Part shown: positions 26,882-51,800 of the stretch, piece after piece | Layout: every line of letters starts with the position of its first letter | How positions within the stretch are numbered: the stretch's first letter is position 1 | From: an uncultured Elusimicrobia bacterium | Lineage (GTDB): Bacteria > Elusimicrobiota > Elusimicrobia > FEN-1173 | Reading direction: 5' to 3' | DNA length: 64,000 nucleotides | NCBI GenBank assembly: GCA_964482515.1 | Contig: CAYZXT010000001.1 | Location: 102,403-166,402, forward strand | The notes under the pieces: generated by a model | What the model saw: only the letters and a program-made list of their open reading frames with translations | Told to the model about the DNA's origin: nothing | Database searches by the model: none | Made by a program: the position numbers and the translations under genes

Positions 26882-26885
26882 TCCC

Positions 26886-34496: not shown

Positions 34497-35750
34497 TCAG
34501 TACACGAACTCCCGGATATCGTAGAGCGCCGTGACGGGCATCCGCCCGTCAAAGGACACCTTCGCTTTTTCGATGATGGCCTCCATCTGGCGGCGTTTTT
34601 CCTCGTCGGTGCAGGCCGTCCAGCCTTCCTGCGCCATCTTCCGGTCATAATCCGGCTCCGTCTGGATCGGCGAGAAATAAAGGATGTCCCGTTCGTCTAG
34701 GGGGAGGCTGTTCAGGAGGTCCGACGTCGCGCCGGTATGGGCGTCGCCGTTTTTCCGGCCTCCCAGGCCCAGCAGCGACACCAACCCCACGCTCATTCCC
34801 GCGGCTTTCACGCGCTCCACGGCCCGCCGCGCGTCGTCCGCCGTGCCGGGTTTGTGGGCCCAACGGCGCAGCGCGTCGTCCCCCGTTTCCAGCCCGATAT
34901 AGATCCGCCGCATTCCGGCCCGCCCCAAGTCCCTCAAATCCTCCGGCGACCATTGGAGGATCCGCCGCGCCTCGCCGAAACAATAGATGCCGCCGATGCC
35001 GTCTTTCTGGGGCCGCGCCTGTTCGGGGAAGACCCGCGCGAGCTCTTCGCACGTGCGCAGGAGAAGGTCCGCCGGCGCGTCCATGGCGTTGGCGTCGCCG
35101 AGGAATATGGAGCAGCGCCGCGGCAGGGAGGCGCCGAAATAATTTTTCACCTCGCTGATGTGCGACCGGATTTCCGCTTCGGTGCGGACGCGGGCGGGGC
35201 GGTCGCGGTAGAAATGGCAGAAGGCGCAGCGGTTCCAGGAACAGCCTTCGGTCACTTGGATGACCAGGGACAGATATTGGTCCGGCGGCAGGATGCCGAT
35301 GGGACGATAGACGGTTTTGAACATGATCTCATCTTCTGTCAGTGATTTGATGTTGTAGGCCAATAGCGAATTCAGGAGGTGGATCGTCCGGGTATCGGAC
35401 CCCTGGACTTTTTGGCCTTGCACGAGCATCTGGAGGTTCCCGGTTTCCTGCAGCCGCGGGACCTGGTCAAGGCATTTTTCCAGGACGCCGCAGAGCCGTT
35501 GCCGCACGAGCAGCGCTTCCTCTTCCGCGAGTAAGCGGATGCGCCGGGCCCGTCCGCCTTCCGGAAGCCATTTCTTTTCCACGAAACGGCCGTCCAGGCC
35601 CCGGACGAAATAGAGATCGTCCCAATTGATGCCGATGGGGCGGCCGCAAAGGTCGAAGGAAAGGGTCGCGCGCGGCGCCGCGACCAGGGAAATGGCCCGG
35701 CCCGTGAGCCCAATGGTCAGGTTTTGGATGGGGGACATGCCAATAATCAC
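34497..35750 (-). CDS. radical SAM-type protein with about 160-aa N-terminal domain of unknown function
   Basis: Cluster motif EGCSWNRCAFCHFY (spacing C-x4-C-x2-C as read from the translation), GDANAM, and a YIGLETGDD Elp3/MiaB-like barrel pattern. Confidence 0.75.
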   Translation of the reverse strand: MIIGMSPIQNLTIGLTGRAISLVAAPRATLSFDLCGRPIGINWDDLYFVRGLDGRFVEKKWLPEGGRARRIRLLAEEEALLVRQRLCGVLEKCLDQVPRLQETGNLQMLVQGQKVQGSDTRTIHLLNSLLAYNIKSLTEDEIMFKTVYRPIGILPPDQYLSLVIQVTEGCSWNRCAFCHFYRDRPARVRTEAEIRSHISEVKNYFGASLPRRCSIFLGDANAMDAPADLLLRTCEELARVFPEQARPQKDGIGGIYCFGEARRILQWSPEDLRDLGRAGMRRIYIGLETGDDALRRWAHKPGTADDARRAVERVKAAGMSVGLVSLLGLGGRKNGDAHTGATSDLLNSLPLDERDILYFSPIQTEPDYDRKMAQEGWTACTDEEKRRQMEAIIEKAKVSFDGRMPVTALYDIREFVY

Positions 35751-36241: not shown

Positions 36242-36778
36242 GTGAATAAAAAGGTCGGACTATTTTTTCTCATGATGTTCAGCCTCATCGCCTGTAACAA
36301 GGTGTCCCAGCCGCCCGCCCTCTCACGCCAGTTCACAGACCAGCAACTCACCGCCGATTTTCCCTCGGACCTGGGGCCAGAGCGGATCGACGTTGCCGCC
36401 TACCCTCCCGAACAACAATCGGGTTACGACCTCTTCGTCCAAAAATGCGGCCAGTGCCACACGCTGGCGAGGCCCATCAACGCGGCCCTGAGCACCGAAG
36501 AGGAGTGGACCCGCTATATCGAGCGGATGCACGGAAAGGCGGAAAGCCGCTTCAAGGAAAAGACGATGACCGCCGATGAGGCGAAGAGGATCGTCGAGTT
36601 CCTCGTGTTCGACTCACGGGAGCGCAAATTGAACCACCCGCAGGAATTTCAACGGCAGCAGGAACAGCTCCGGGAAATGTTCAAGGCCGTCCAGGAAGAA
36701 CGGACGCGCGTTCAAAACCAGGAGGGCCGCGAGAAAGCCCGCGAATCCGCGCCCTATATGGGCGACAAACCTTCCTAG
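36242..36778 (+). CDS. monohaem c-type cytochrome lipoprotein
   Basis: GTG start after GGGGGAG. Lipobox LIAC. Single CGQCH haem motif with a distal Met candidate (IERMH). Confidence 0.7.
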   Translation: MNKKVGLFFLMMFSLIACNKVSQPPALSRQFTDQQLTADFPSDLGPERIDVAAYPPEQQSGYDLFVQKCGQCHTLARPINAALSTEEEWTRYIERMHGKAESRFKEKTMTADEAKRIVEFLVFDSRERKLNHPQEFQRQQEQLREMFKAVQEERTRVQNQEGREKARESAPYMGDKPS

Positions 36779-36923
36779 TGACGCTTTTCCAGCCCCGCGG
36801 TTCGACGCCAAACATCCATCCTGAAAAAAGTTTTCCCTATTTATGACGCCGGTCATAGTTGAACGTATGGACTTGTCGTATCTTTGAAGAGGAAGGACTA
36901 AGTTTTGTTTTGCATCGGGAGGG

Positions 36924-38213
36924 ATGCTTGACGAACGAACGTGTCGACAGCTGCGGAGCGATCGGATCATGATGCCGGCGAGCCCGCGGCTTATTTTTTG
37001 GGAAACCACGGCGGGCTGCAACCTCCGGTGCACCCATTGCCGCCGGCTCGACGTCATGGACGCCGTGTCCCGCGACGACATGGACACCGCCCGCGCCAAA
37101 GCCTTCATCGACGATATTTCCTCCCACTATAAACCCATCCTCGTGCTCTCCGGCGGAGAACCGCTTTTCCGAAACGATATTTTAGAGCTGGCCGCCCATG
37201 CCCGCGACCGCGGTCTGCGCGTGGCCCTCGCCACCAACGGCACGCTGGTGACGCGGCAGAAGGCCAAAGAAATCAAGGTGGCCGGCATCGCCCGCGTCAG
37301 CATCTCTTTGGACGGCGCGCGCCCCGAGTCCCACGACCGCATGCGCGGCGAGGGGAATTTCGTCCGCGCCCTGGAAGGCTTCCGCCACCTCTCGGAAGAA
37401 GGCGTCAGCCTCCAGGTCAACATGACCGTCACCCGCCACAACGCCCACGAGCTCCCCGAACTTTACGAGAAATGCCTGGACTTGAAAGCCGACGCCCTCC
37501 ACCTCTTCATGCTGGTTCCGGTGGGCTGCGGCGTTGAGATCGCGGACACGGACATGCTGCCCCCCGTGGAATACGAGAAATGGCTCAACTGGTTTTACGA
37601 CCGGGAATGGGAAGGCAGGATCGAGATGAAGGCCACCTGCGCGCCCCATTATTTTCGCATCGTCCGCCAGCGGTCGCACGAGCATGGCGGACTCACGCCG
37701 AGCCACCATCGCCAGATGTCCAAAGGCGGACGTCCTTCCACGTCCGAGCCCTCCGGCGTTGGCGCCGGCGAGAGCCACGGTCATCAGGCGCTGCACCAAA
37801 CGACCAAAGGCTGTTTGGCCGGTTCCGGCGTCGCCTTCGTTTCCCACAAAGGCGAAGTCTTCCCCTGCGGATACCTTCCCTTGACCGCCGGCAACGTCCA
37901 TCAGCAATCCTTTCAAGATATCTGGGAAAACTCCCCCGTCTTTCAAAAACTGCGCCAACCGGATCTGCTTGAAGGCAAATGCGGCGAATGCTCCTTCCGC
38001 TTCGTCTGCGGCGGTTGCCGCGCGCGGGCCTATTATCAAAGCGGCAGCGAACTCGCCGAGGAACCGTTTTGCGTCTATGAACCCCCGCATAAAGAACAAT
38101 CCTGCTGCGGCTCCGGCCAGGGGAATTGCGATTCGAAGGGTTCATGCCACGCTGCCGCGCCGGTCAATTTCCTCCGAGACATCCCGCATTTCCCCATCGG
38201 GGGGCGGCCATGA
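36924..38213 (+). CDS. radical SAM/SPASM protein of the AhbD/NirJ (haem b / haem d1 maturation) type
   Basis: FWETTAGCNLRCTHC (C-x3-C-x2-C). SPASM region GCLAGSGVAFVSHKGEVFPCGYLP...GKCGECSFRFVCGGCRARAY...EPFCVYEP. The start may instead be ATG 36969. Confidence 0.8.
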   Translation: MLDERTCRQLRSDRIMMPASPRLIFWETTAGCNLRCTHCRRLDVMDAVSRDDMDTARAKAFIDDISSHYKPILVLSGGEPLFRNDILELAAHARDRGLRVALATNGTLVTRQKAKEIKVAGIARVSISLDGARPESHDRMRGEGNFVRALEGFRHLSEEGVSLQVNMTVTRHNAHELPELYEKCLDLKADALHLFMLVPVGCGVEIADTDMLPPVEYEKWLNWFYDREWEGRIEMKATCAPHYFRIVRQRSHEHGGLTPSHHRQMSKGGRPSTSEPSGVGAGESHGHQALHQTTKGCLAGSGVAFVSHKGEVFPCGYLPLTAGNVHQQSFQDIWENSPVFQKLRQPDLLEGKCGECSFRFVCGGCRARAYYQSGSELAEEPFCVYEPPHKEQSCCGSGQGNCDSKGSCHAAAPVNFLRDIPHFPIGGRP

Positions 38214-39298
38214 ACGGATCGAATATTTTCCTCGTCGGCATCAGCCATAAAGACACGCACTTCTCCCTGCTGGAGAAAGTCGCCGTGCCCAAGGCGGGCC
38301 TGGCGGAAATGCTGCGCGAGGTGAAAGCGTTGGCCGAGCTGGACGAGGTCGTGATCGTCTCCACCTGCAGCCGCGTGGAGATCGCCGCGGTGGCGCGCAA
38401 TCCCAACGAAGCGGCGGAGCGTTTGCGGGGCTGGTTCCGCGGGCGGGGCGGGAACGGTCTCGCCGTATATACGCACGAAGGGGAGGACGTCGTCCGGCAT
38501 TTGATCCGCGTGTCGGCGGGGCTGGATTCCTGGATCATCGGCGAGTCAGAAATCCTCCGTCAGGTGAAGGAATCCTACGGCCAGGCGCTGGACGCCGGTT
38601 TTTCGGGGCGGTTCCTGAACAAGATTTTCCAGCGCGCCGTCGGTTCGGGCAAGGACATCCGCGCGGTGACCGGCCTGCAGAACGGCATCAAGTCCATCGG
38701 CGGCGCGGCGGCGCTCCTGGCGAAAAAGATTTTCGGCGAGATGACCGACGGCCGCGTGCTGGTGTTCGGTGCTGGCCAGGCGGCGGAAGCCGTGGTGCGG
38801 CACCTGCTCACGAAGAATTTCAAAGAGATCCTCGTGGCCAACCGCACGGTGGAGAACGCCCAATCGCTGGCCGCGTGTCTGGGCGGAAAGGCCCTGTCCC
38901 TGGAGGAGGGGCTCGAAGCCTTGGCGCATGCGGACGTCGCCGTGTTTTCCGCTTCGACCAATGATTATTTGTTGGACCCCGCCCTCCTTCAGCGCTACAC
39001 GGCCCGCCGTTCCCGTTCCCTTTTCCTCATCGACCTCGGCATGCCCCGCAACGTGGACCCGTCCTGCGGGGATTGCGAGGGCGTCTACCTATATTCCCTG
39101 GGCGAGTTGAAGAACGTGGTGGAGGAGAACACGGCGCAGAAATCGTCTTCCGTGGCCGAGGCCGAGGCCCTTTCCTCCCGGTTCGCGGACAAATTATGGG
39201 ATGAGTTATCACGGGCGTTTTCCATGACCGAAACGCCGTTGGACCTTGGCCTGCGTGTTCCCATGGCCGGGGCGGAAGAGGTTGCCGCTGTATCTTAG
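38210..39298 (+). CDS. hemA: glutamyl-tRNA reductase
   Basis: LVGISHKDT, active-site VSTCSRVEI, NADPH-binding VFGAGQAAEAVVRHL. The ATG overlaps the upstream stop (ATGA). Confidence 0.9.
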   Translation: MNGSNIFLVGISHKDTHFSLLEKVAVPKAGLAEMLREVKALAELDEVVIVSTCSRVEIAAVARNPNEAAERLRGWFRGRGGNGLAVYTHEGEDVVRHLIRVSAGLDSWIIGESEILRQVKESYGQALDAGFSGRFLNKIFQRAVGSGKDIRAVTGLQNGIKSIGGAAALLAKKIFGEMTDGRVLVFGAGQAAEAVVRHLLTKNFKEILVANRTVENAQSLAACLGGKALSLEEGLEALAHADVAVFSASTNDYLLDPALLQRYTARRSRSLFLIDLGMPRNVDPSCGDCEGVYLYSLGELKNVVEENTAQKSSSVAEAEALSSRFADKLWDELSRAFSMTETPLDLGLRVPMAGAEEVAAVS

Positions 39299-39331
39299 AT
39301 TTGACGCAGTCTTAAATATCAGGAGGAATCC

Positions 39332-40321
39332 ATGGACGTTTTAAACTTCAAAATGAAATGGGGACATGGATTGATGGTCGCCATCGCACTGGGGATCGCA
39401 GCGTTCTTCGGAACGCCGGGCATTTGCTCGGCCGAAGACGCGGCGACGCCGGCTGATGCGCCGTCGACGGTCCCCAGTTTCGTCGGGTCGGAGAGCTGCT
39501 TGGCGTGTCACGCGGACCAGGCTGCCTTCAAAGGAAGCATCCACGAGAAGGGCTTCCTCCATAAGAAAGGGCTCACGGGCGAACAGTCCTGCGAGACCTG
39601 CCACGGGCCCGGGTCCCTGCACGCGGACGCGGCCGGCGATAAAACCAATCCCGGCTTCGCCACGGTGACCGCGTTCATGAAGGCGTCCCCTTCCGCGGTC
39701 AACGAAAGCTGCCTGAAGTGCCACGACGACGCGGCGCAGTCCCATTGGAGCGGCAGCATGCACGAAGCCCGCGGGCTTTCCTGCCTTTCCTGCCACAGCG
39801 TTCATACCGCCAAGGCGGAAAAAAACCTACTGAAGAAGGCGAACGTGGAGGAGACCTGCTATCAATGCCATAAGGACGTGAAGGCGAAGATGAGCCGCTC
39901 GAGCCATCACCCCGTCAAAGAAGGCAAGATGTCCTGCTCGGACTGCCACCAGCCCCACGGCACCGAAGGCGTCAAGATGCTGACGGGCGGCACGCTCAAC
40001 GAGACGTGCTTCCAGTGCCACGCGGAAAAGCGCGGACCGATGCTCTTTGAACACAGGCCGGTCAGCGAGAACTGCGGCGCCTGCCACGAGCCCCACGGCT
40101 CCAACCACGGCAAGCTGCTGACCAAGAAGACGCCGTTCCTCTGCCAGTCCTGCCATTCCAACAGCCGGCACCCCGGCACGATGTACGCGGGCAATCCCGC
40201 CACGGCCGGGTCGGACAACTATCAGAAACTGAACAACCGGGCGGTCTACAGGAACTGCATGAACTGCCATTCGAACATACACGGCAGCAACCATCCGTCG
40301 GGCGTGTACTTTGTCAGGTAA
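39332..40321 (+). CDS. periplasmic decahaem c-type cytochrome, MtrA/DmsE/PioA/MtoA family
   Basis: Signal peptide. Ten CXXCH motifs counted in 329 aa (CLACH, CETCH, CLKCH, CLSCH, CYQCH, CSDCH, CFQCH, CGACH, CQSCH, CMNCH). MtrA-like C-terminus CHSNIHGSNHPSG. AGGAGG RBS. Confidence 0.85.
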   Translation: MDVLNFKMKWGHGLMVAIALGIAAFFGTPGICSAEDAATPADAPSTVPSFVGSESCLACHADQAAFKGSIHEKGFLHKKGLTGEQSCETCHGPGSLHADAAGDKTNPGFATVTAFMKASPSAVNESCLKCHDDAAQSHWSGSMHEARGLSCLSCHSVHTAKAEKNLLKKANVEETCYQCHKDVKAKMSRSSHHPVKEGKMSCSDCHQPHGTEGVKMLTGGTLNETCFQCHAEKRGPMLFEHRPVSENCGACHEPHGSNHGKLLTKKTPFLCQSCHSNSRHPGTMYAGNPATAGSDNYQKLNNRAVYRNCMNCHSNIHGSNHPSGVYFVR

Positions 40322-40334
40322 GGGGGGGCAACCT

Positions 40335-42515
40335 ATGAAAGCAATGAGATTCTTTTTGAGCGTCGCGCTGACGGCGCTCCTGGCGTTTCCGGCCCCTTCT
40401 TGGGCGATCGAAGGCGACGTGACGATGGGCGTGGAGGTTACTGCCGGGGATTACGACAACGCCAAGTTCCGGGAGTACCGCTACAACACCGATGGTCCCA
40501 TCAATGGTTATATGGATATTGAGATGACGGGCGAGCCCGGCGGCGCGCGGTTCTACGGGCTCAACCTGAAGACCCGCACGGCCGAGGACGTGGACCTGTC
40601 CCTCGAGACGGGGGCCTACGGGAAATACCGTTTCGGCATGGACTTCCGCCGCTTCGGCCACAACTTCGCCTTCGGGGCGAAGTCCCTCTACTCCGGGATC
40701 GGGAGCGATACGCTGACTCTCTCGGACAGCCTGCAAACAAGGCTGCAGCTGACCTCGGCGTCTGGCCTGCCGGCGGCGCTGCGTTCGGCGTTGAACGGCG
40801 CGGGGCTGGTGGACATCGGCCTGCGCCGGGACCAGGCCGGAATGGACCTGGCCTGGAACCTCTCGGACCCCCTGGCTTTCAATATGGCCGTCGACTACGA
40901 GAAGAGGAAAGGGGTCCGCCCCTTCGGAGTCGCCTTCGGCAGCCCCGGCGGCAACTCGGTGGAAATCTTCGAGCCCATCGATTACGACACCACCCGCCTG
41001 GAAAACGGCCTGGCCTATAACGGGAAGTCCTTCTCCGCCGGCATCCGGCATTCGCTGTCGGTCTTCACCAACGCCAACAGCTTCGTCCGGTATGATAACC
41101 CGCTCCGTTCGACGCCCAGCGCCACGCTCGGGCCTGTCGCCGGACAAACGGCCTTGGCGCCCGACAACATGGCCAACCATCTTTCCGCCTCCTTCAGCCA
41201 GAAGCTTCCCCTGCATTCGCGCGTGACGGCGACGGCGAGCGCCGGCTGGTTCCGGCAGAACGCCGACCTCCTGCCCGTGACCATCAACAGCGCGCTGACC
41301 ACGGTGGGTACGTCCCCCAGGAAAAGCGCCGAAGCCAAGGTGGACACGCGGAACTACGGATTGAGCCTCGCGTCCCGTCCGCTCAAGAAGCTCCACGTGA
41401 AAGCGGGCTACCGCTACGATTCCCACGACAACAACACGCCGGTCTACTCCATCTCCAACTGGTCCGTGAGCGACGCCAGCATCTCGGCCAGCCCCAAAAG
41501 CTCCAACTACGTGAGCGTGGTCAAGCGCATATCGGAAGTGGAAGCCGCTTACGACGTCTTCTCCAAGACAGTGCTGAGCGTCGGCGCCGAGAACGAGCAC
41601 GCCAACTTCGTGAACGGTTCGGCCGACAAGGAGAACGAGAACATCTACAAGGTCTCCCTGGACACCCGCAAGATCAAGGCGACCGACCTGCGGCTGACCT
41701 TCGAACATTCCAACAAAAACTCGGACTACGCCAATTACACCTCGGCCAACGCGGAGCTTCCCTGGATGCGCAAGTATTACGCGGCGTCCCGGGACCGCAA
41801 CCGGGCCATCGTCATGGCGTCGGTCTCGCCCTTCGACCGGCTGACCACGGGCGTGGAATATTCCATGGGAGCGGATAAATACCCGCAGTCGGCCTTCGGC
41901 ATCACGGACAGCGTTTTCCAGTCCGTTTCCGTCGATGCGGACTATGAGGTCACCGACCGTATCCGCGTGGCGCCCTTCTACACCTTCGAGTTCTACAAGA
42001 CCCACCAGCGGAGCCGGCAGTGGACGCCGGGCGCCATCGGCGATCCCTACGGCCAGTACACGGCCGTCGAAACGCCGAGCAACTGGACCCTGGAATACCG
42101 CGACGTGATCCATACGCCGGGAATCAACCTGGACGTGGTCCTGGTGCGCGAGAAACTGAACTGGAGCTCCCAGGGTTCCGTGGCGGTGGCGGACAACAAG
42201 CTGAACTTCGACAGCGGCGTCGGGACGGCGGCCAACGACGCCACGGCCTTCGTTCCCATCGACGCGAACGACGCCGACGACAGCTACCTCATGGCCCTCA
42301 ACACCCGGTTCGATTACGCGGTGAAGAAGGACGTGAGCGTGAGCCTCGGGTACGCCTACGAGCGCTGGAGAGTCCAGGACGATTACATCTATAACGGTTA
42401 TGTCCCGGTGGAAGTCACCGGCGCCGGGGCCTATGGAAATTTGACGACCATGGACACGATGTATAAGTCCTATAATGTCCATGCTGTGTATGTCCAAGGC
42501 TCCTATCGCTTCTAA
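40335..42515 (+). CDS. MtrB/PioB-type decahaem-associated outer-membrane beta-barrel
   Basis: It immediately follows the decahaem gene. Signal MKAMRFFLSVALTALLAFPAPSWA. About 700 aa of alternating-strand sequence rich in Y/D/N/S, with a C-terminal ...VYVQGSYRF. Confidence 0.75.
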   Translation: MKAMRFFLSVALTALLAFPAPSWAIEGDVTMGVEVTAGDYDNAKFREYRYNTDGPINGYMDIEMTGEPGGARFYGLNLKTRTAEDVDLSLETGAYGKYRFGMDFRRFGHNFAFGAKSLYSGIGSDTLTLSDSLQTRLQLTSASGLPAALRSALNGAGLVDIGLRRDQAGMDLAWNLSDPLAFNMAVDYEKRKGVRPFGVAFGSPGGNSVEIFEPIDYDTTRLENGLAYNGKSFSAGIRHSLSVFTNANSFVRYDNPLRSTPSATLGPVAGQTALAPDNMANHLSASFSQKLPLHSRVTATASAGWFRQNADLLPVTINSALTTVGTSPRKSAEAKVDTRNYGLSLASRPLKKLHVKAGYRYDSHDNNTPVYSISNWSVSDASISASPKSSNYVSVVKRISEVEAAYDVFSKTVLSVGAENEHANFVNGSADKENENIYKVSLDTRKIKATDLRLTFEHSNKNSDYANYTSANAELPWMRKYYAASRDRNRAIVMASVSPFDRLTTGVEYSMGADKYPQSAFGITDSVFQSVSVDADYEVTDRIRVAPFYTFEFYKTHQRSRQWTPGAIGDPYGQYTAVETPSNWTLEYRDVIHTPGINLDVVLVREKLNWSSQGSVAVADNKLNFDSGVGTAANDATAFVPIDANDADDSYLMALNTRFDYAVKKDVSVSLGYAYERWRVQDDYIYNGYVPVEVTGAGAYGNLTTMDTMYKSYNVHAVYVQGSYRF

Positions 42516-42533
42516 AGAAAGAGGGATCAACTC

Positions 42534-43196
42534 ATGAATCAATATTCGAAATCAGTTTCCATCGTGGCCGCCGGTTTGTTGTGCCTGTCCGTTTCGGCTT
42601 TCGCGGCGGACGGCAAGGCGGTCTACGAACAGAAATGCGCGTCCTGCCACGGCAAGGACGGCAAGGGCAATCCGAAGATGGCCACCGTGTTCAAAGTGGA
42701 CAACGCTCTTTTGGACATGACTAAAAAGGCCACCACGGACAAATCCGAGGCGGAACTGGTCGACGTCACGAAAAAAGGCGTGGGTAAGATGCCCGCCTAT
42801 GAGGGAAAACTGACTGAGGCGGAGATCGCCGCGTCCGTTTCATACATGCTGAGCCTGGCGGGCGGATCGTCTTCAGCTTCGGCCCCGGCCGCGGATAAGC
42901 CCGCCGCCCCGACGGCCGCCAAGGCGGATACCGGCGCTGCAGCCGGCGTCTATCAGTCGAAGTGCGCGTCCTGCCACGGCAAGGACGGTAAGGGGAATCC
43001 ATCGATGGCCAAAGTTCTTAAACTGGACGATGCAGCCCTGGACCTGACCGACGCGGCCACGCAGGGGAAATCCGAAGCGGACTTGACGGCGATCACGCAT
43101 AAAGGCGCGGGGAAGATGCCCGCCTACGAGGGGAAACTGAAGGACGGGGAAATCACGGCCCTCTCCGCTTACATTAAGTCCCTCGGAGGGAAATAG
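42534..43196 (+). CDS. dihaem class-I c-type cytochrome (tandem duplicated domain)
   Basis: Signal peptide and two near-identical units (KCASCHGKDGKGNP...GKMPAYEGKL...EI) joined by an Ala/Pro-rich linker. Confidence 0.85.
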   Translation: MNQYSKSVSIVAAGLLCLSVSAFAADGKAVYEQKCASCHGKDGKGNPKMATVFKVDNALLDMTKKATTDKSEAELVDVTKKGVGKMPAYEGKLTEAEIAASVSYMLSLAGGSSSASAPAADKPAAPTAAKADTGAAAGVYQSKCASCHGKDGKGNPSMAKVLKLDDAALDLTDAATQGKSEADLTAITHKGAGKMPAYEGKLKDGEITALSAYIKSLGGK

Positions 43197-43340
43197 ATCC
43201 CGCATTTGGGCGTTTGCGTCCGTCGCTTGGACGCATTCAATAAAACCGGGGGAGGGGTCTGAGGGAGGAAAGCTTGTGGTCCAGGGGGCCATGGGAATTC
43301 TTCAGCGGATCGCTCCCCCGGATTGTTTTCGGGGACTGTT

Positions 43341-45248
43341 ATGGGACGAAACGGAATGAATCATAGGAAGAAAATGCCGTTCGCGGGATTGATGGTTTTG
43401 ATCGCCGCCGGATTCTTCATTTCCGTCTCGCCGTCCGTGCGCGCCGCCGACAACAGCGATTGCATGGTCTGTCACGGACAGGAGGGGATGGGCGCCCCGC
43501 TTATTGATGAAAAAGAGTTCACGCGCTCCATCCACGGCGGAAACCTCTGCGCCTCCTGCCACCAGGACGCGGCCAACCTTCCCCACGCCGACAAGCTGAA
43601 GCCCGTTTCCTGCGGCAATTGCCACCGCGTGGAAACCCAGATCTATTTGAATTCCGATCACGGCCGCGCCGTGAGCAAAGGCCGCGTGGAAGCGGCTTCC
43701 TGCAAGGACTGCCACGGCCACAGCCATACCCTGCTCAACTCCCGCGATCCGAACTCTCCCGTCAACCGACGCAACATCGCCAAGACCTGCGCCCAGTGCC
43801 ACGCCGACACCGAGCGCATGGCGAAAGTCAAACTGACGGAGCGCGATCCCCTGGATTCCTACAACCACACGATCCACGGCGAGGCCTTCGCCAAGGGGAA
43901 CATCAACGCCGCCGTCTGCAGCGACTGCCACGGCACCCACGATCTCCACGGGTCCTTCAACCCGCAAAGCCGCTTGTTCAAGAACAACATTCCCGACACC
44001 TGCGGGCGCTGCCACCAGAACGTCAGCGCCGTCTTCAAACAAAGCATCCACGGCCAGGCCATCGAGGCGGGGATCAAAGAGTCCCCGGTCTGCACGGACT
44101 GCCACGGCGAGCACACCATCCGCTCGCCCAAGGACCCGTCGTCCACCGTGTGGTCGGGCGCGGTGACGGAAACCTGTTCCGCCTGCCACGACTCGGCGCG
44201 GCTGAACATGAAGTTCGGCCTGCCCACGGACCGGTTGAAAACGTTCCTCGATACCTATCACGGCCTCGCTTCGAAACGGGGCGACCTGCACGTCGCCAAC
44301 TGCGCCTCCTGTCACGGGTTTCACGACGTGCTTCCGTCCTCCGATCCGCGTTCGTCCATCAACAAGCTGAACCTCGCCAACACCTGCGGGCGCTGCCATC
44401 CGGGCGCCGGGCAGAAATTGTCCACCGGCTACGTGCACGGGCCGCCGACCGGGAAGCATTTCGCGATTTCCTGGGCGAAAATTTTCTACCTCATCGTCAT
44501 CCCGTTCACGCTCGGGTTCATGCTGTTGCACAACCTCTTGGACTGGCTGCGAAAGTCGCTCGACCCCGTTCCGGCGCATGAGCAGGTTTCCGAGGACGAC
44601 GGCCCCATCCGACTGACGGTCAACGAGCGCTGGCAGCACGCCCTCTTGATGGCGACGTTCGTCCTGTTGGCCTACACCGGGTTCGCTTTGCGATACCACG
44701 ACGCAGGCTGGATGCAGTTCCTGGCGCCCTTCGGCGAAGACGTCCGCCGCTCGATCCACCGCTGGAGCGCCTTCGTCTTCAGCCTGCTCGCGGTCTACCA
44801 CGTCTTCTACCTGGCGTTCACGCGGCGGGGGCGCTTCGTCCTGAAGGAAATGCTGCCGCTGTGGGCCGACGCGAAGGTGTTCTTCCAGCGGACGGCCTAC
44901 AACATCGGCCTGCGGAAGTCTCCGCCGGACCATAAATCCTTCTACCACTATCCGGAAAAGATCGAGTATTGGTCCCTGGTTTGGGGCTCCCTGATCATGG
45001 TGGCGACGGGCGGCGTCCTGGTGTTCAATAATTTCGTGCTGAAGCATTTCCCGCTGTGGATGTCGGACCTGGCGGGGATGATCCATTACTACGAGGCCGT
45101 GCTCGCCTGCCTGGCGATCCTGATCTGGCACCTCTACGGGGTGATGTTCGACCCCAGCGTCTATCCGATGAACTGGTCCTGGCTCATCGGCCGGCCGCGG
45201 AAAAAGCGGGAATCGCTTCCGAAAAATCCCGGCGATAAACCGTCATAG
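43341..45248 (+). CDS. fusion of an 11-haem c-type cytochrome domain to a C-terminal cytochrome-b (FdnI/HydC-like) membrane domain; CbcL-like
   Basis: 11 CXXCH motifs were counted. The C-terminal about 250 aa has 4-5 TM helices with conserved His (WQHALLMATF, SIHRWSAFVF, MIHYYEAVLA). Start uncertain (TTG 43323, ATG 43341 or 43356). Confidence 0.8.
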   Translation: MGRNGMNHRKKMPFAGLMVLIAAGFFISVSPSVRAADNSDCMVCHGQEGMGAPLIDEKEFTRSIHGGNLCASCHQDAANLPHADKLKPVSCGNCHRVETQIYLNSDHGRAVSKGRVEAASCKDCHGHSHTLLNSRDPNSPVNRRNIAKTCAQCHADTERMAKVKLTERDPLDSYNHTIHGEAFAKGNINAAVCSDCHGTHDLHGSFNPQSRLFKNNIPDTCGRCHQNVSAVFKQSIHGQAIEAGIKESPVCTDCHGEHTIRSPKDPSSTVWSGAVTETCSACHDSARLNMKFGLPTDRLKTFLDTYHGLASKRGDLHVANCASCHGFHDVLPSSDPRSSINKLNLANTCGRCHPGAGQKLSTGYVHGPPTGKHFAISWAKIFYLIVIPFTLGFMLLHNLLDWLRKSLDPVPAHEQVSEDDGPIRLTVNERWQHALLMATFVLLAYTGFALRYHDAGWMQFLAPFGEDVRRSIHRWSAFVFSLLAVYHVFYLAFTRRGRFVLKEMLPLWADAKVFFQRTAYNIGLRKSPPDHKSFYHYPEKIEYWSLVWGSLIMVATGGVLVFNNFVLKHFPLWMSDLAGMIHYYEAVLACLAILIWHLYGVMFDPSVYPMNWSWLIGRPRKKRESLPKNPGDKPS

Positions 45249-45305
45249 GAAGGCAAGGGCGCGGCGTGTAGGAATCGAAATAATTTGCGTAAAAGCGGGG
45301 GGACT

Positions 45306-46244
45306 ATGAAACGACAGCATGCGGCATCATTCCCAATTTCGGCGATAGCGGCGGCGCGGCTCCTTGGGCTGGCCGCCGTTTTGCTTATCGGCGGACCCGC
45401 ACTCCGCGCCGCGGACTTCGTCGGCCCGGACACCTGCGCGGACTGCCATCCCAAGGAATCGGGCGATTGGAAGGGCTCCATCCACGCGGGCGCCTTCAGC
45501 GACAAGTTCAAGAAAGTCTGGAAGGAACACGACAGCCGCCCCGCCTGTCTGGAATGCCACACCACTGGCCATAAGAAGGGCACCGCGAATTTCGTCCACG
45601 CCGGCGTCAGCTGCGAATCCTGCCACGGCGCCATGACGCCGGGCCATCCGGCGGAAAAGATGTCCCTGCCCGTTTCCTCCGAGATGTGCGCCGGTTGCCA
45701 CAAGAAATCCCACCAGGAATGGAAGCTGAGCAAGCACGGGCAAAAGGGCATCCGCTGCTTCGACTGCCACAACGTCCACTCCCAGGGTTTGCGTCTGGGC
45801 GGCGGCGACGCGCTCTGTGGCTCCTGCCACGCAACCAAGCAGAAGGATTTCGCCCACGCCACGCACCACGTGGAAGGGTTGAAGTGCGCCACCTGCCACT
45901 TCCCGGCCTACCCGGACAAGGCGGACGCCATCCAGGGCACGGGCGCGCCCGGGCACTCGCTTTCCGTCGGCGCGGAAGTCTGCTCGCGCTGCCACGAGGA
46001 AATGGTCCACAAGAGCTCGCACATGAACGAACTTCGGACGGAAGTCAGCGAATTTAAAAAACAGATGTCCCTCGCGGGCGTGAACAGCGTGTTCGACCTG
46101 AAGGAGCAGGAACGCGACCTGCGGTGGCGGCTGGACCGGGCGAAGCAGAGCGCCTGGCTGACGGCGCTGCTCGGGTTTCTGGCCGGCCTCGGGTTCGGAT
46201 GGCTCGGCGGCTGGTATCTGCTGCGCAGGAAGTCCGTCAAATGA
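45306..46244 (+). CDS. octahaem c-type cytochrome with C-terminal membrane anchor
   Basis: Signal peptide, eight CXXCH motifs (CADCH, CLECH, CESCH, CAGCH, CFDCH, CGSCH, CATCH, CSRCH), and a C-terminal TM WLTALLGFLAGLGFGWLGGWYLL. Confidence 0.8.
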   Translation: MKRQHAASFPISAIAAARLLGLAAVLLIGGPALRAADFVGPDTCADCHPKESGDWKGSIHAGAFSDKFKKVWKEHDSRPACLECHTTGHKKGTANFVHAGVSCESCHGAMTPGHPAEKMSLPVSSEMCAGCHKKSHQEWKLSKHGQKGIRCFDCHNVHSQGLRLGGGDALCGSCHATKQKDFAHATHHVEGLKCATCHFPAYPDKADAIQGTGAPGHSLSVGAEVCSRCHEEMVHKSSHMNELRTEVSEFKKQMSLAGVNSVFDLKEQERDLRWRLDRAKQSAWLTALLGFLAGLGFGWLGGWYLLRRKSVK

Positions 46245-47128
46245 AGCCGGAACTGAATCCATCGCTCTCGCGGCGTGGGTTCCTCAAGACCGCCGGCGCC
46301 CTCGGGCTGGTGAATTTATTTCCCCGTTCCGCGCGCGCGCAGACCGGCCGGGTCTCCAAGGGGGAAGTCTTCTCCACGCTCGTGGACCTCACGCGCTGCA
46401 TCGGCTGCCGTTCCTGCATGCGCGCCTGCAAGACCGCTAACCGCCTCCCGGGTTCCCAGGAGGCCATGGACATCGCCCATCTGGACCAGCGGCATGAACT
46501 CAATTTTAATATGTGGACGGTGGTCAACCGGGAGGGGAAAGGCGACGCCCTCCGCCACGTGAAGCAGCAGTGCATGCACTGCCTGGAACCGGCCTGCGTG
46601 TCCGTCTGTCCCGTGGCCGCCCTCGACCAAACGCCCCAGGGGCCGGTCATCTACCGCGAAAGCCGCTGCATCGGCTGCCGCTACTGCATGATCGCCTGTC
46701 CCTTCGACGTGCCGCGCTTCGAATGGAACAACGGGCTCACGCCCGTGATCGGCAAATGCCAGTTCTGCGCCCAGGAACGTCTGTTCCGCGGCTTGAATCC
46801 GGCCTGCACGGAATCCTGCCCCACGGGCGCGCTCAAGTTCGGCAAGCGGTCGGACCTGCTCTCCGAGGCCCACGCGCGCATCAAGTCCCGCCCCGACCGT
46901 TACGTCGACCATGTTTTCGGCGAGGAAGAAGTGGGCGGTACCTCGTGGCTATACATTTCGGACGTTCCCTTCGAGGAAGTGGGTTTCAAAAAGGGCCTGC
47001 CCAAGCGGCCCATGCCGTCGCTGACCTGGGACGTGGTTTCCTACATCCCGGCTTTGGTGGCGGTGCTGGCGTCGCTCTTCGGTATGGTCGCCTACAAACT
47101 ATCGAAGCATGAAAAGCGAGAATCGTAA
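46241..47128 (+). CDS. Tat-exported 4x[4Fe-4S] ferredoxin-type subunit (NrfC/HybA/DmsB-like) with C-terminal TM
   Basis: Twin-arginine signal SRRGFLKTAGALGL. Four Cys clusters (CIGCRSCMRAC, CMHCLEPACVSVCP, CIGCRYCMIACP, CQFC...CTESCP). The ATG overlaps the upstream stop. Confidence 0.85.
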   Translation: MKPELNPSLSRRGFLKTAGALGLVNLFPRSARAQTGRVSKGEVFSTLVDLTRCIGCRSCMRACKTANRLPGSQEAMDIAHLDQRHELNFNMWTVVNREGKGDALRHVKQQCMHCLEPACVSVCPVAALDQTPQGPVIYRESRCIGCRYCMIACPFDVPRFEWNNGLTPVIGKCQFCAQERLFRGLNPACTESCPTGALKFGKRSDLLSEAHARIKSRPDRYVDHVFGEEEVGGTSWLYISDVPFEEVGFKKGLPKRPMPSLTWDVVSYIPALVAVLASLFGMVAYKLSKHEKRES

Positions 47129-47191
47129 GTCGTCACCCCGGCGGAAGCCGGGGTCCAGATTAACCTGTATTCCGGCTTTCGCCGGAATGAC
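47129..47191. repeat. double-hairpin REP-like element, copy B (intercistronic)
   Basis: gtcgtc-ACCCCGGC-ggaa-GCCGGGGT-ccag ... ATTCCGGC-tttc-GCCGGAAT-gac. It sits directly between the NrfC-like stop and the GGAGGGGAG RBS of the NrfD-like gene. Confidence 0.7.
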
Positions 47192-47206
47192 GGAGGGGAG
47201 TTTACA

Positions 47207-48427
47207 GTGATCGGCTGGATTTATTTACTGGCGACCACGGGGATTTTGATCTTCATTGCGGCGCGTACGGCCATGGACCGCCCCCTGACGCGCTTTCGTT
47301 GGATCGGGTGGGTGACGCTCGCCAATCTTTGGGTCGTGACCGCCGTGCTGCTGGGGATCCGCTTCATCAAGGGGATGGGCGCCGTCACGAACATGACGGA
47401 CGTCAACCCCTGGGGCGTCTGGGTGGGATTGCTGCAGGCGGGCGTGGCGCTTTCCGCCGGCGGGTTCCTCATGGCGGCGACGGTCCACATCTTCCACATC
47501 AAGCGTTTCGAGCCGGTCCTGAAGCCCATGGTCCTGACCGCGTTCCTCGGCTATTCCTTCGTCGCGACCACTCTCTTCATCGAGGTCGGGCGGCCCTACC
47601 AGCTCTGGCATCCGCTGGTGATGTGGCAGCACCACTCCATCATGTTCGAAGTGGCCTGGTGCGTCACGCTCTACATGACGGTTTTGTTCGTGGAGTTCAG
47701 CCCGGTGATCTTCGAGCGTTTGAAGATGGACCGCGTGGTGAAGGTTTTGCACGCGGCCGCGATCCCCATCGTCATCGTCGGCGTCATACTCTCCACCCTG
47801 CATCAATCCTCCATGGGGTCCATGTTCCTGATCACGCCGCAGAAGATCCACCCCGTTTGGTATTCGCCGCTCCTGCCGGTTTTCTTTTTCGTTTCCTGCG
47901 CGGCCGTGGGGCTTTGCGTCACCATCGTGGAATCCTTTTATTCCGAGAAGATCTTCAAACAGGAGCTCGACCACGAACTGCTGATGAATTTGGGACGGGC
48001 GGCGTCCTTCTTCCTTTTTCTATATGTGGGAATCCGGGTCATCGATATCACGGCCCGCGGCGCCTGGGGTTCCCTGGCCGGACATCCGCTTTTGACGGCG
48101 GAGCTGGTCCTTGAGTTGGTCGTGGGGGGAATTGTTCCGGCTTGTCTCCTGTTGTGGAAACCCGTTTTGCAAAACCGCGGGCGGCTTTTCCTGGCGTGCC
48201 TTCCCGTTTTGATCGGCATCGTGTTCAACCGCCTCACCGTCAGCTGGTTCGCGATGGTGCCCTACACCGGGCCGGGCTATTTCCCGACCTGGATGGAGCT
48301 GGCCATCTCCCTCACCGTCTTCACGGTCCTCGTCGTCCTGTTCGGCCTCGCCGTCAAGTTCCTCCCCGTGTTCGCGCAGGAAGAAGAGGAAGTCGAAGCG
48401 GAAGCGCCCGCCCACCTGCTGAACTGA
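47207..48427 (+). CDS. NrfD/PsrC-family polytopic quinone-interacting membrane subunit
   Basis: 406 aa with about 10 TM helices. GTG start 6 nt after GGAGGGGAG. Its position after the NrfC-like FeS protein fits this call. Confidence 0.8.
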   Translation: MIGWIYLLATTGILIFIAARTAMDRPLTRFRWIGWVTLANLWVVTAVLLGIRFIKGMGAVTNMTDVNPWGVWVGLLQAGVALSAGGFLMAATVHIFHIKRFEPVLKPMVLTAFLGYSFVATTLFIEVGRPYQLWHPLVMWQHHSIMFEVAWCVTLYMTVLFVEFSPVIFERLKMDRVVKVLHAAAIPIVIVGVILSTLHQSSMGSMFLITPQKIHPVWYSPLLPVFFFVSCAAVGLCVTIVESFYSEKIFKQELDHELLMNLGRAASFFLFLYVGIRVIDITARGAWGSLAGHPLLTAELVLELVVGGIVPACLLLWKPVLQNRGRLFLACLPVLIGIVFNRLTVSWFAMVPYTGPGYFPTWMELAISLTVFTVLVVLFGLAVKFLPVFAQEEEEVEAEAPAHLLN

Positions 48428-48871
48428 AAAGTTTTCTCACCTGTAAATCCTCGTTCGTAATATTTTTGATCTCGCAAAAAATTTACATGTCAGCGCAAAA
48501 CAAAAATCACTTCATTAAAACGACACAATTTCAAATCCTGATCTTATTCGTAGTAAAAATGAAAATTAATTGTTGACACTATAAGCAGTTAATTGGCTTA
48601 ATTGCACTTGTTGTAATTGTCTTGATGTTGCGGGGGCTTCAAAGGCGTTTCATTCTTCGCCTGAAGGTTTGACATCAAAAAGATCAAAGCGGTCCTCCTC
48701 GGTATTCTCCTCTCACCCGGCGCTCTCTGGGCCACGGAACTGATTTCCAGCACCGTCGACTCCGGCGGCAATGTTGATCCCAACCAAAACCCTCAAGTCA
48801 TCTCCGTAGGCCAAAGCGTCATAACCTATCCTTACTCCGGTTCGGAAAACCCGAAGGTCGGGTTTGTTTAT

Positions 48872-51800
48872 ATGCTTAACCTGGAATTAAGTACGCCCAC
48901 TCTATTGAGTCCGCTGGCTGGTGGAGAGATCGGCCAAGTGTGTAACTTCGATTGGACAGACGTTGATTCCGCCGTTTCTTATGAGACGCAGATTTCCTCT
49001 GTCAGTGATTTTTCATTCGTCACCTACAGCACGATCACATCCGCTTCATCGGTCATAGTCAGCTCCACTAGCCTTTTGCCTGGAACGATGTTTTGGTGGC
49101 GAGTACGAGCGAAGGACAACCTGAACACATACAGTACCTACAGTTCAACGGGGCCATTTACTTTTGATCTTACGCCTCCTAGTGCCATCACAAATCTTGT
49201 GGCGACATCTACGACCGTTGCAACGGGCCTTGTCCGTTTGACATGGACTGCACCTGGAGATGATGGCGCAACGGGCATGGCAACTCAATATGACATCCGA
49301 TATACGACCATGGGAATTATAAACACAGAAGCCAAATTCTCCGTCGCGACGCAGGCTTCTGGAGAGCCCTACCCACCACTATTTGTGGGAGGAACGGAAG
49401 TTTTTAACGTTCCAGGATTGGATATCGGAAAGACTTATTTCTTTGCGATTAAAACGATGGACAATGTGGGAAATTGGTCAATCATTGACTGGAGCACGGC
49501 AAATATTACGACCCTGTACGATAATGGGCAAGGGACGATTCAATGGATTGGAGAGTTTGATATAAATATTTCAACAGTAGATGGCGGAGGTATGCATGGG
49601 ATGACAATAGATAATCAAGAAAACATCTACATTGTTGATGATACTATTCAAAATTCATACGGAGCGGGAAATAGGATTTTGAAATTTGATTCAAATGGAT
49701 CATACATTACATCGTGGGGAGAGGATTTGTTTCAGGATGTTACAGATATTGTTATTAACAAATCAAATGAATTAGTTGTGTCTGATTTAGGGGCAAATAA
49801 GATATACGTTTTTTCCTCGAATGGAGGAATGCCGTTATATCAGTGGGATTTTACCCAGCCTTTCAAGATGGCTGTAGATTTAAATAATAATATTCTTGTG
49901 CATTCTATTTACGGAAGTGATTTATACATTTATACCTCAACAGGAGGATATGTCGACTCCTGGTCAACAAATCTTTCTATGACTAACGTATCGATCGACC
50001 ATGCAAATAATGTGTATTTGATAAACAATTACGGGCTAAACAATATTTATAAATATACATACCACGGAGATTTTTTAAAATTATTTGCACGTGCTGTAGG
50101 AACAGAAGGGTATTTCGAAGTGCTTAATGATATTAATAATAATGTTTATTCCAGCGTGCGTTATTCTCAGAGCGAACCAACCTGCCCTAATCTTGGTGTT
50201 CAAGAATATAATCCAAACGGGGTGTATGTTTCATCTTATGTTGATGGAGCTTGTTCTAATATTGGTTATTCTGGAGGATTTGGAGCAGCTGGAGGAGTAC
50301 CATTACAAATAGAGATTTCTACAATTACAAATAATATATATATCGGAGATCTTGTCCGTCGAAGAATCCAAATTTTCCGTCAAAGTTTCTCCGATATCAC
50401 CCCTCCTGCCAAAATCACTTCGCTTGTAGCAAGTTCGCCTAGATCTAATTCAGTCTGTTTAACCTGGACCGCTCCCGGGGCGGATATTTATACCGGAACA
50501 GCAAGTTCCTACGACATTCGCTTTGCCACGTTTTCAATAAACAACGGGAATTTCTCGTTAGCATCGCAATGGACTGGTGTGATTCCTCAATCCTCTGGAA
50601 ATGTGGAGATAACAACAGTTAATGTCCTTGCCGCCGGAACAACCTACTTCTTCGCCGTCAAAGCCATCGACAATAATGGGAATGTTGGGCCGCTTTCTCG
50701 ATTGGCAATGGCCTATACTCCAATCAACCGGACACTGTTAATCAACGAAGTCGCGGCAGCGGAGACCAATGACTTTGTTGAATTTTATGTGGCTGAAAGA
50801 ACAATGGCGGGTGGATTCTCCCTTTATGAGGATGATACGCTCGTCAAGCAATTCCTCAGTACCGGCGCTTGGTCGTCGGAAATAGCCTCGGGGACATACA
50901 TCACGCTCCATTTTAACGGGGACCCGGCCAGTGATGGCGTTCCGTCGTCCACCACAGCGACTGCTTTCGATATTTATACGGCCGCGGCCGGTCTCGACAA
51001 TACGGACAGCGTGCTCTTATTGAAGGATAGCGGTGGCGCTTTGATCGATATGGTGGCTTACGCAGATCAGAGCACAAACACTCTGTCGGGATCGTTTCAA
51101 GGAAAACTCGTCAGCGGCAAACAGCAGGGGCAATGGAACTTCGAAAGCTCCACTCCCACCAAGTTTGATTGCGTGAATTCCCGCGGCATGACCCAGTCCG
51201 GCCGCGCCATTGCCCGCGATCAATTCTCCAGCAAAAGCGCAGCGCAACCCTCCAAGTATGACTGGGTCTATCGTACAGACTTATCGCCCGGCTCCGTGAA
51301 CAGCTCTACTTCCGCCTCCTCCGGCCTAGGGGCGGCTTGGATTGCAGATTTGAACGGCGTCGCCATCTCCACCATCACTCCCAATACGAATCGCACTTTA
51401 GTCTTTAATTATCGCGTCTCGACGGCCATCACAAGTAACGACGGCTACATGCTCACCATTGATATCCCCAATGGTTGGACTCAACCAACTCTTGATGCAG
51501 GACCAGGCCATATCGCTATAAGCACACCGGCTTTGTCCACCGCCACTTATAACGTTTCTATCGCCGCGGGGATTTCAAGCGAGATAATCGGCCGGATCAT
51601 TGTTCCTTTGGGCGCGCTTACAGGCGGAACCACGGTTCAGGTCGTCTATGGAGCCGACAGTTACGCGACAAGCCCATCCACCGCGGGTGTGTACATGTTT
51701 ACCGTGAGGGATGATCTGACAGGAACCAATGTCCTTGATATATCTTCGTCCCCCAGCCTGGGCGTTGGAAGTTCTGGTGGGATGGGGGCGCCACAGATCG

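Follow-up and report, generated by a model that had tools for sequence, protein, structure and literature searches.

The closest described counterpart of the locus reported here is the Mto gene cluster of the betaproteobacteria Gallionella capsiferriformans ES-2 and Dechloromonas aromatica RCB, in which mtoC, encoding a homologue of CbcL, is clustered with mtoA, mtoB and mtoD; mtrH or mtoC was also found next to mtrAB or mtoAB in seven further species (Shi et al. 2012; Zhong and Shi 2018, PMC6295460). The Mto pathway of Sideroxydans lithotrophicus ES-1 comprises MtoAB, MtoD, PmcA and ImoA, and according to its revised model monohaem cytochromes take electrons from MtoA to inner-membrane and high-potential acceptors (PMC13390432). 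The locus considered here lies in a stretch of 64,000 nucleotides (nt) from an uncultured Elusimicrobia bacterium (contig CAYZXT010000001.1, positions 102,403 to 166,402; "the window" refers to this whole stretch), where ten genes, g1 to g10, at window positions 36242 to 48427 very probably encode a chain for extracellular electron transfer that is built on the Mtr/Mto porin-cytochrome plan.

Elusimicrobiota have been described as fermenters or as respirers of oxygen or nitrate, and the main comparative-genomics study of the phylum mentions neither iron nor multihaem cytochromes nor porins. No paper on an Mtr/Mto conduit in Elusimicrobiota was found; the literature yielded only incidental co-mentions and a table entry for two Elusimicrobia CbcL/MtoC homologues (PMC6295460) which, being about 900 amino acids (aa) long with about 20 haems, are not of the subtype present in this locus. 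A complete, quinone-wired outer-membrane conduit, if the locus does encode one, would add extracellular electron exchange to the phylum, with a bearing on iron and humic cycling in peat, groundwater and soils.

Gene content and layout of the locus

A preliminary description of the sequence had listed ten genes on the same strand, and all ten open reading frames (ORFs) were confirmed at the coordinates given there. Start codons were refined from gene calls on an identical public Logan contig (SRR14787577), which gave lengths of 726 aa for the barrel g5 (ATG at 40335), 624 aa for the fusion g7, 312 aa for the octahaem g8 and 295 aa for the iron-sulfur (FeS) protein g9.

g1, 36242..36778 (+): monohaem c-type cytochrome lipoprotein, 178 aa; lipobox LIAC, one CXXCH, long charged C-terminal helix
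g2, 36969..38213 (+): AhbD/NirJ-like radical SAM/SPASM protein, 414 aa; insertion of about 35 aa, Cys-rich tail
g3, 38210..39298 (+): short glutamyl-tRNA reductase HemA, 362 aa; ATG overlaps the g2 stop codon (ATGA)
g4, 39332..40321 (+): periplasmic decahaem cytochrome of the MtrA/MtoA/DmsE family, 329 aa; 10 CXXCH, Sec signal peptide
g5, 40335..42515 (+): 26-strand outer-membrane barrel of the MtrB/PioB family, 726 aa; Cys-free, C-terminus GSYRF
g6, 42534..43196 (+): soluble dihaem class-I cytochrome c, 220 aa; two tandem domains, 2 CXXCH
g7, 43374..45248 (+): inner-membrane c/b fusion of the CbcL/MtoC/MtrH type, 624 aa; 11 CXXCH and an FdnI/HydC-type cytochrome b
g8, 45306..46244 (+): octahaem cytochrome c of an uncharacterised family, 312 aa; 8 CXXCH, signal peptide, long C-terminal helix, hydrophobic tail anchor
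g9, 46241..47128 (+): Tat-exported protein with four [4Fe-4S] clusters, HmcB/HybA/FdnH-like, 295 aa; C-terminal transmembrane anchor, ATG overlaps the g8 stop codon
g10, 47207..48427 (+): integral membrane subunit of the NrfD family, HmcC/HybB-like, 406 aa; about 10 to 11 transmembrane helices

Translation of the ORFs gives 1, 0, 0, 10, 0, 2, 11, 8, 0 and 0 CXXCH motifs for g1 to g10, so that the 32 motifs in five proteins previously counted by eye are the exact number. In a six-frame scan of the window, all ORFs with multiple CXXCH motifs lie between 36.2 and 46.3 kb, and the sole motif outside the cluster is a single one in an upstream radical-SAM gene; as every multihaem ORF of the window falls in the cluster, their concentration there is not due to chance. 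The short gaps and overlapping start and stop codons attributed to the cluster are found at most junctions (g2/g3, -4 nt; g3/g4, 33 nt; g4/g5, 13 nt; g5/g6, 18 nt; g7/g8, 57 nt; g8/g9, -4 nt; g9/g10, 78 nt) but not at g1/g2 and g6/g7, which are separated by 190 and 177 nt, respectively.

The locus was compared with 90 related loci, two of them from reference genomes, 80 recovered from metagenomes by means of a g7 profile and the rest obtained by exact look-up of homologues, all annotated by profile searches and CXXCH counts; the contigs derive largely from peat, bog and soil metagenomes. The closest loci in species-representative genomes belong to two Elusimicrobia metagenome-assembled genomes, with barrel identities of 66% and 50%, and the closest named homologues of g5, g7 and g8 are likewise from Elusimicrobia or Elusimicrobiota. 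The upstream neighbourhood, which includes an Asp-Al_Ex permease and a divergent radical-SAM gene, is common to the Elusimicrobia assembly GCA_016721625.1.

Genes g4 to g7 share the order mtoA-mtoB-mtoD-mtoC of the Mto clusters in Gallionella and Dechloromonas, which likewise have no MtrC, and as this order was published (PMC6295460) the core layout is that of a textbook Mto cluster. The same succession of decahaem, barrel, class-I cytochrome c and g7-type fusion was identified in the related locus L004 and in several peat and soil contigs (e.g., L026, L028, L035 and L058). The earlier judgement that the layout differs from the textbook Mtr, Pio, Mto and Pcc clusters therefore does not extend to the core, and applies to the full combination only: the conduit and the g7-g10 block occur together in just two of the 90 loci, and no paper describing their combination was found. 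A search for synteny of the whole gene order had been proposed as a check. In the closest relative, an uncultured Elusimicrobia contig (L001), g1 and g3 to g10 are collinear with the window at 52-70% protein identity, the AhbD-like gene is missing, nrfH-nrfA stand in front of the cluster and an ImcH-like gene stands behind it. The second of these loci (L005) retains all parts in permuted order, namely the AhbD-like gene, g1, two monohaem c genes, g7, g8, g9, g10, an ImcH-like gene, MtrA and MtrB.

Several differences from the Mto clusters are nevertheless apparent. The g7 product has 11 CXXCH motifs compared with nine in MtoC, the small cytochrome g6 is a tandem dihaem protein with a His/Met-type motif instead of the monohaem MtoD, and the octahaem, FeS, NrfD, HemA and AhbD-like proteins and the monohaem lipoprotein are all additional. 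The host belongs to Elusimicrobiota and not to Betaproteobacteria, and Fe(II) oxidation is not indicated for this locus. In the Sideroxydans pathway an MtoAB-type conduit is likewise combined with small periplasmic cytochromes, of monohaem type, that stand between the two membranes, but its inner-membrane partner is the tetrahaem, CymA-type ImoA (PMC13390432), whereas a CbcL/MtoC-type fusion and an FeS/NrfD module are found here. The locus is not categorically new, since each of its component families was known before and its core order has been published. The novelty lies in the phylum of the host, in the linkage, seen rarely, of an MtoAB-type conduit to an uncharacterised block of CbcL-like fusion, octahaem, FeS and NrfD genes conserved across phyla, and in the repeated association of such genes with haem supply.

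The outer-membrane conduit and its periplasmic cytochromes

Genes g4 and g5 encode a genuine MtrA/MtrB-type porin-cytochrome pair, as had been claimed, with g5 starting 13 nt past the end of g4. Profile searches, which had been suggested as the first check, place g4 in the DmsE family (TIGR03508, 262.8 bits; cut-off, 192.2) and g5 in the MtrB/PioB family (TIGR03509, 261.9 bits; cut-off, 240.05), with g5 also covering PF11854 over its full length (310.6 bits; cut-off, 23). Sequence search of the PDB matched both proteins to 6R2Q, the Shewanella MtrCAB complex and the only solved MtrAB structure: g4 corresponds to MtrA (6r2q_A, E 5.7e-60) over residues 51-326, the whole ten-haem core, and aligns with it at all ten haem sites, and g5 corresponds to MtrB (6r2q_B, E 1.6e-26). 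An AlphaFold2 model of g5, built with 34 homologues, has 26 long strands (pLDDT 85.9, pTM 0.80), and its best Foldseek match is again 6r2q_B (TM 0.80/0.89, E 2e-38), all further matches having TM values below 0.5, among them 22-strand TonB-dependent receptors at no more than 0.49. The barrel was thus neither missed by the MtrB/PioB model nor modelled as a small porin, the two outcomes that had been named as speaking against the pair. Its length of about 726 aa, its GSYRF end and its lack of Cys residues are as first described; the last of these sets it apart from Shewanella MtrB, which carries an N-terminal CXXC motif.

The absence of an MtrC/OmcA-type surface decahaem cytochrome, previously remarked on for the locus, holds for the entire 64-kb window, where the six-frame scan detected no cytochrome lipoprotein other than the monohaem g1. 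Compared with Shewanella MtrCAB, CymA is absent as well and the inner-membrane partner is of a different type. The monohaem g1 was considered as a substitute for MtrC and rejected, as it carries only one haem and its homologue in an Omnitrophica locus (L008) has an inner-membrane-type context, following a Mo/FeS/NrfD gene set. The g1 product matches PF13442 weakly (23.8 bits, under the cut-off), and its other homologues occupy the same place in L001 (52% identity) and follow the AhbD-like gene in L005.

The product of g6 is a soluble class-I cytochrome c (PF13442, 108.6 bits over two stretches), in agreement with its proposal as a candidate soluble shuttle. It consists of two tandem domains, 64% identical and joined by an Ala/Pro-rich linker, each with a CXXCH followed by GKMPAY, a His/Met-type motif, and the repeat is visible in the DNA as well (42621-42832 versus 42948-43159). 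In the related loci this position is occupied by one or two separate monohaem genes.

Inner-membrane modules and direction of electron flow

On its sequence, g7 is a CbcL/MtoC/MtrH-type protein that combines a multihaem c domain with a C-terminal HydC/FdnI-type cytochrome b, and its activity towards quinones is predicted. The 11-haem/cytochrome-b fusion that had been reported is borne out by 11 CXXCH motifs and a match to PF01292 (41.5 bits; cut-off, 30.1), with a further match to TIGR01583 under the cut-off (44.8 bits). Four to five hydrophobic segments lie C-terminal of the haem domain, and the transmembrane-helix histidines His422, 462, 476, 571 and 586 are invariant in 37 homologues. The family is large, with more than 7800 homologues at E<1e-10, and a PDB sequence search for g7 returned no match. 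The same architecture is found in MtoC (Galf_2006, 673 aa; Daro_1404, 655 aa) and in CbcL of Geobacter sulfurreducens, an organism that uses CbcL and ImcH with Pcc/Ext conduits and not with MtrAB. To our knowledge, experimental evidence is available for no member of either family besides CbcL and ImcH. Both the architecture and the CXXCH spacing of g7 agree with Table S2 entries of the 2018 survey, including an 11-CXXCH member with near-identical spacing (PMC6295460).

A counterpart of Geobacter ImcH (NapC/NirT region, six CXXCH and one CXXXCH) adjoins the g7 homologue in 49 of the 90 loci, including every close Elusimicrobia relative. Within the MtrA/MtrB clusters of these relatives it was located at 17869-19440 in L001, 9442-10989 in L002, 2701-4242 in L004 and 15002-16516 in L005, in contrast to the 2018 survey, in which imcH was never beside mtrAB or mtoAB (PMC6295460).

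The octahaem g8 reaches 47.5 bits against PF13435 and has 79 representative homologues at E<1e-30 and 332 at E<1e-10; its homologues are all named either "hypothetical" or "multiheme cytochrome". Its AlphaFold2 model (pLDDT 80.4) gave no significant fold match in the PDB, the best being cytochrome c554 at E 0.036, so that no structural homologue can be named. The g9 product carries the Tat motif RRGFLK and matches the TAT_signal model, PF13247 and four-cluster Fer4 models, with a transmembrane helix at residues 265-283; its best solved relative is FdnH (1kqf_B, E 5.7e-36). For g10, which has about 10 to 11 hydrophobic segments, a match to PF03916 was obtained (60.7 bits; cut-off, 25.8) and a PDB sequence search found none. 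The best-scoring models for both proteins are those of HmcB/HmcC and HybA/HybB, although equivalog level was not reached with any of them (g9: HmcB, NF045715, 300.9 bits, cut-off 420, and HybA, 232.6 bits, cut-off 263; g10: HmcC, NF045714, 296 bits, cut-off 550, and HybB, 249 bits, cut-off 450).

The plan of these subunits, with a multihaem cytochrome of the periplasm, an FeS protein that has four clusters, a Tat signal and a transmembrane anchor, and a membrane subunit of the NrfD type, recalls Desulfovibrio Hmc/Nhc, Escherichia coli HybA-HybB and NrfBCD; Hmc likewise joins an NrfD-type subunit with a cytochrome-b subunit. Apart from g9 and g10 scoring under every equivalog cut-off, the present module differs from these systems in being linked to an outer-membrane conduit and in its cytochrome g8, an unrelated, tail-anchored octahaem protein about 300 aa long for which the PDB offered no fold match. 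Its b-type subunit is of the FdnI kind and carries 11 c-haems in a fused domain, and a cytoplasmic HmcF-like subunit is missing.

The g7-g10 block, for which no published description was found, was identified in ten of the 90 loci, including Omnitrophica (L008), Verrucomicrobiae (L089) and one unclassified bacterium. Neighbouring genes of the block share 4-14 nt in L089 and L091; L090 shows a permuted order, with the cytochrome b encoded by a gene of its own. An ImcH-like cytochrome, missing from the window, usually accompanies the block. Since the four genes travel together across phyla and appear translationally coupled in relatives, they may act as one unit rather than as two alternatives, a proposition for which the odds appear to be even. 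Hence, of the two different inner-membrane quinone-coupling modules of the preliminary description, the CbcL-type fusion and the FeS/NrfD module are both present, but counting them as two may be an overstatement. In either case, the block provides a concrete candidate for the coupling of MtrAB/MtoAB-type conduits to the inner membrane outside Proteobacteria.

A more far-reaching and rather doubtful proposal is that g7 to g10, together with the ImcH-like gene of the relatives, form a previously unrecognised inner-membrane respiratory supercomplex common to Elusimicrobiota, Omnitrophota, Verrucomicrobiota and others, which would unite 19 c-haems, four FeS clusters and two kinds of quinone-interacting subunit in one machine. 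Its FdnI-type dihaem cytochrome b would have a quinone site towards the cytoplasm and its NrfD-type subunit one towards the periplasm, and a quinone loop, or switching between the two sites, might then be possible. If it exists, such a machine could allow the cell to conserve energy or to draw on its membrane potential, depending on the potential of its partner outside, and would be the integrated counterpart of what in Geobacter are separate ImcH, CbcL and CbcBA routes.

It is less certain that the conduit and the block belong to a single system. The ImcH-like gene of the relatives was not detected in a six-frame scan of the window, which has either lost it or never had it, and this weighs against one co-transcribed system. 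Conduit and block unite in only two of the 90 loci, a conduit with g7 alone and no g8-g10 is present in L004, and L008, L010 and L091 have the block with no conduit within 10 kb. The gaps of 177 nt (g6/g7) and 190 nt (g1/g2) fall at module borders and could accommodate internal promoters, and other respiratory genes are nearby (cydAB in the window, nrfHA in L001). These observations also weigh against one co-transcribed system, and could be expected if independent modules had come to adjoin by chance and served different pathways, i.e., a conduit with its small cytochrome, a stand-alone quinone-linked g7-g10 complex, and haem synthesis. We consider this quite improbable, because the genes of the cluster are collinear in L001 at 52-70% protein identity and their counterparts have re-associated in a new order in L005, all multihaem genes of the window are in the cluster, g7 is an element common to both types of module, and a conduit with no inner-membrane partner would be useless. 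Termination of transcription between the modules had been named as a point that would speak against the system; a consensus scan, which also covered promoters, found terminator signals inside the cluster at no more than chance frequency (15 versus 16.1 expected), and the scan neither proves nor disproves an operon.

The locus is best viewed as a single chain, in which the decahaem wire g4 would thread the 26-strand barrel g5 in the manner of MtrA and MtrB in 6R2Q, the dihaem g6 and possibly the lipoprotein g1 would ferry electrons across the periplasm, and an assembly of g7, g8, g9 and g10 would tie the chain to the quinone pool. HemA and the AhbD-like enzyme probably help to supply the approximately 34 haems required per protein set. 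With outward flow, the inner membrane would be the place where quinol from heterotrophic metabolism is oxidised, and the electrons would go to soluble or colloidal extracellular acceptors, for example chelated Fe(III) or humic substances, that have access to the opening of the barrel. To this explanation as a whole, comprising conduit, g7-g10, haem supply and outward flow, we assign a probability of roughly 55%.

That the direction of flow cannot be read from the sequence was pointed out at the outset, and we agree; the conduit is probably reversible. Outward flow is put at an even chance, and four observations make us lean towards it: CbcL and ImcH have been discussed as quinol oxidases of Geobacter serving acceptors of different potential (PMC6295460), and ImcH-like genes accompany the system in relatives; the window contains a heterotroph-like set of pyruvate:ferredoxin oxidoreductase (PFOR), acetyl-CoA synthetase (Acs) and the quinol oxidase cytochrome bd; nrfHA, a quinol-oxidising branch, stands directly upstream of the cluster in L001; and the related contigs come mostly from peat, bog and soil. 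With cydAB and PFOR/Acs in the window and nrfHA in L001, the region looks like a set of alternative quinol-oxidising branches.

Other features weigh against outward flow and would suit a true Mto-like uptake, in which extracellular Fe(II), reduced humics, a mineral or a cathode would deliver electrons via g4/g5 and g6/g1. These would enter either the quinone pool, where g7 and/or g8-g10 would serve as quinone reductases, or a high-potential terminal reductase, and the quinol would be burnt by cytochrome bd or nitrite reductase. The order of g4 to g7 is identical to that of mtoA-mtoB-mtoD-mtoC in Fe(II) oxidisers, and, as in the MtoAB and PioAB oxidisers, there is no extracellular cytochrome of the MtrC/OmcA type. 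The best models for g9 and g10 are those of HmcBC and HybAB, which work as quinone reductases. Of the enzymes that would burn the quinol, cydAB is encoded 8 kb upstream and nrfHA adjoins the cluster in L001. The periplasmic carrier g6 has the His/Met-type motif of class-I cytochromes that are usually of high potential. If g6 is such a protein, electrons would tend to move from MtrA to g6, as proposed for MtoD, and the revised Mto model links MtoA through monohaem cytochromes to inner-membrane and high-potential acceptors (PMC13390432). In published opinion, MtoA and MtrA are possibly interchangeable and reversible.

Uptake is nonetheless regarded as unlikely. In this locus the b domain of g7 is of the FdnI type, and relatives pair the system with ImcH-like genes, which are known only from metal reduction. 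In the Fdn-N redox loop the quinone site of the FdnI-type cytochrome b is on the cytoplasmic side, and reduction of quinone there by a high-potential cytochrome c would be uphill in redox terms as well as against the membrane potential. No gene for autotrophy or for a cytochrome-c oxidase was found in the window, PFOR and Acs being present instead, and the role of MtoC in the oxidisers is a putative one. Marker-gene surveys in which "MtoAB without MtrC" counts as iron oxidation may assign organisms of this kind wrongly.

Haem-supply genes and the neighbourhood of the cluster

The designation of g2 as an AhbD/NirJ-like radical-SAM protein can be kept in part. AhbD is its best-scoring model (TIGR04545), with a match that is split by the insertion, but at 413.4 bits it remains below the cut-off of 500, and TIGR04053 (337 bits; cut-off, 395) is not reached either; PF04055 and PF13186 pass. 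The assignment of g3 to HemA stands (TIGR01035, 275.1 bits; cut-off, 209.55), its match covering profile positions 1-324 of 416, with GlutR_N and Shikimate_DH domains present and no match to the dimerisation domain in the profile search. AhbD-like genes stand beside g7 or ImcH-like genes in 14 of the 90 loci and HemA-like genes are near g7 homologues in six, including Verrucomicrobia (L089), and their recurrence beside the cytochromes supports a role in haem supply. The HemA next to the g7-g10 block in L089 (6233-7318) is also short, with 361 aa, and the cluster-linked short HemA may be a dedicated paralogue.

Directly upstream of the cluster, a radical-SAM protein that matches only PF04055 is encoded divergently (34497-35750, minus strand). 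The pairing of a divergent radical-SAM gene with an AhbD-like gene is kept in L005, L010 and L091, and the protein could act in cofactor or cytochrome maturation. It is preceded on the plus strand (32890-34490) by genes for an Rrf2-family regulator (IscR/NsrR-like) and a class-V aminotransferase resembling cysteine desulfurase, which may provide Fe-S clusters beside a locus rich in FeS proteins and haem. In L001 the place of the aminotransferase and radical-SAM genes is taken by nrfH (tetrahaem NapC/NirT) and nrfA (Cytochrome_C552, 443 bits), at 4866-6813, directly upstream of the g1 homologue.

Farther upstream, cydA and cydB (25451-27902, plus strand; PF01654, 551 bits; PF02322, 346 bits), which encode the cytochrome bd quinol oxidase, are followed by a Crp/Fnr-type regulator at 29740-30408, and together with the cluster they look like a respiratory neighbourhood. 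A sigma-54-type AAA+ activator (31933-32823, plus strand) is 70% identical to its counterpart upstream of the syntenic cluster in L001 (1120-1878), and in L089 a histidine kinase and a sigma-54 response regulator follow the g7-g10 block. A sigma-54 promoter before the cluster was searched for as TGGCAC-N5-TTGCW with up to two mismatches and dropped, as the 11 matches (26.8 expected) included none that was suitably placed.

The G+C content of the cluster (59-63%) is the same as that of the flanking genome. Immediately after g10, where similarity to L001 ends, a low-GC island begins (48428-56000; 47-50% G+C compared with about 61% in the cluster) that contains a 1087-aa fn3/Ig protein, a PorV/PorQ-family barrel, a BclA_C-like protein and a methyltransferase. 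It occupies the site at which L001, L010 and L091 have the ImcH-like multihaem gene, which suggests an insertion with loss or displacement of that gene. Neither a tRNA nor a repeat boundary was found for the island, and the whole window has no Rfam match at the gathering threshold and no tRNA, so that there is no lead to a riboswitch or to an integration site.

Type IX secretion (T9SS)-type genes had been reported next to the cluster, and this part of the preliminary description was not upheld. The ORF at 52030-53070 exceeds the cut-off of the broad PorV/PorQ family model alone (171 bits versus 90) and stays under the PorQ, PorV and PorV2 equivalog cut-offs, and its 1087-aa neighbour shows fn3/Ig matches only, no T9SS sorting domain having been found on it. 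As the barrel gene lies in the separate low-GC island, beyond an AT-rich gap of 445 nt, a link with the cluster was rejected and the proximity is considered incidental.

The carbon context of the window is of heterotroph type, with PFOR at 20450-24052 (minus strand; TIGR02176, 1867 bits), acetyl-CoA synthetase at 2757-4703 (plus strand) and no marker of autotrophy. Between them, at 6555-16000, a 2342-aa RHS/YD-repeat protein has its C-terminal end, together with three following ORFs that gave no hits, in a second low-GC stretch (47-50%), and this region resembles a polymorphic toxin whose tip is variable, together with immunity genes.

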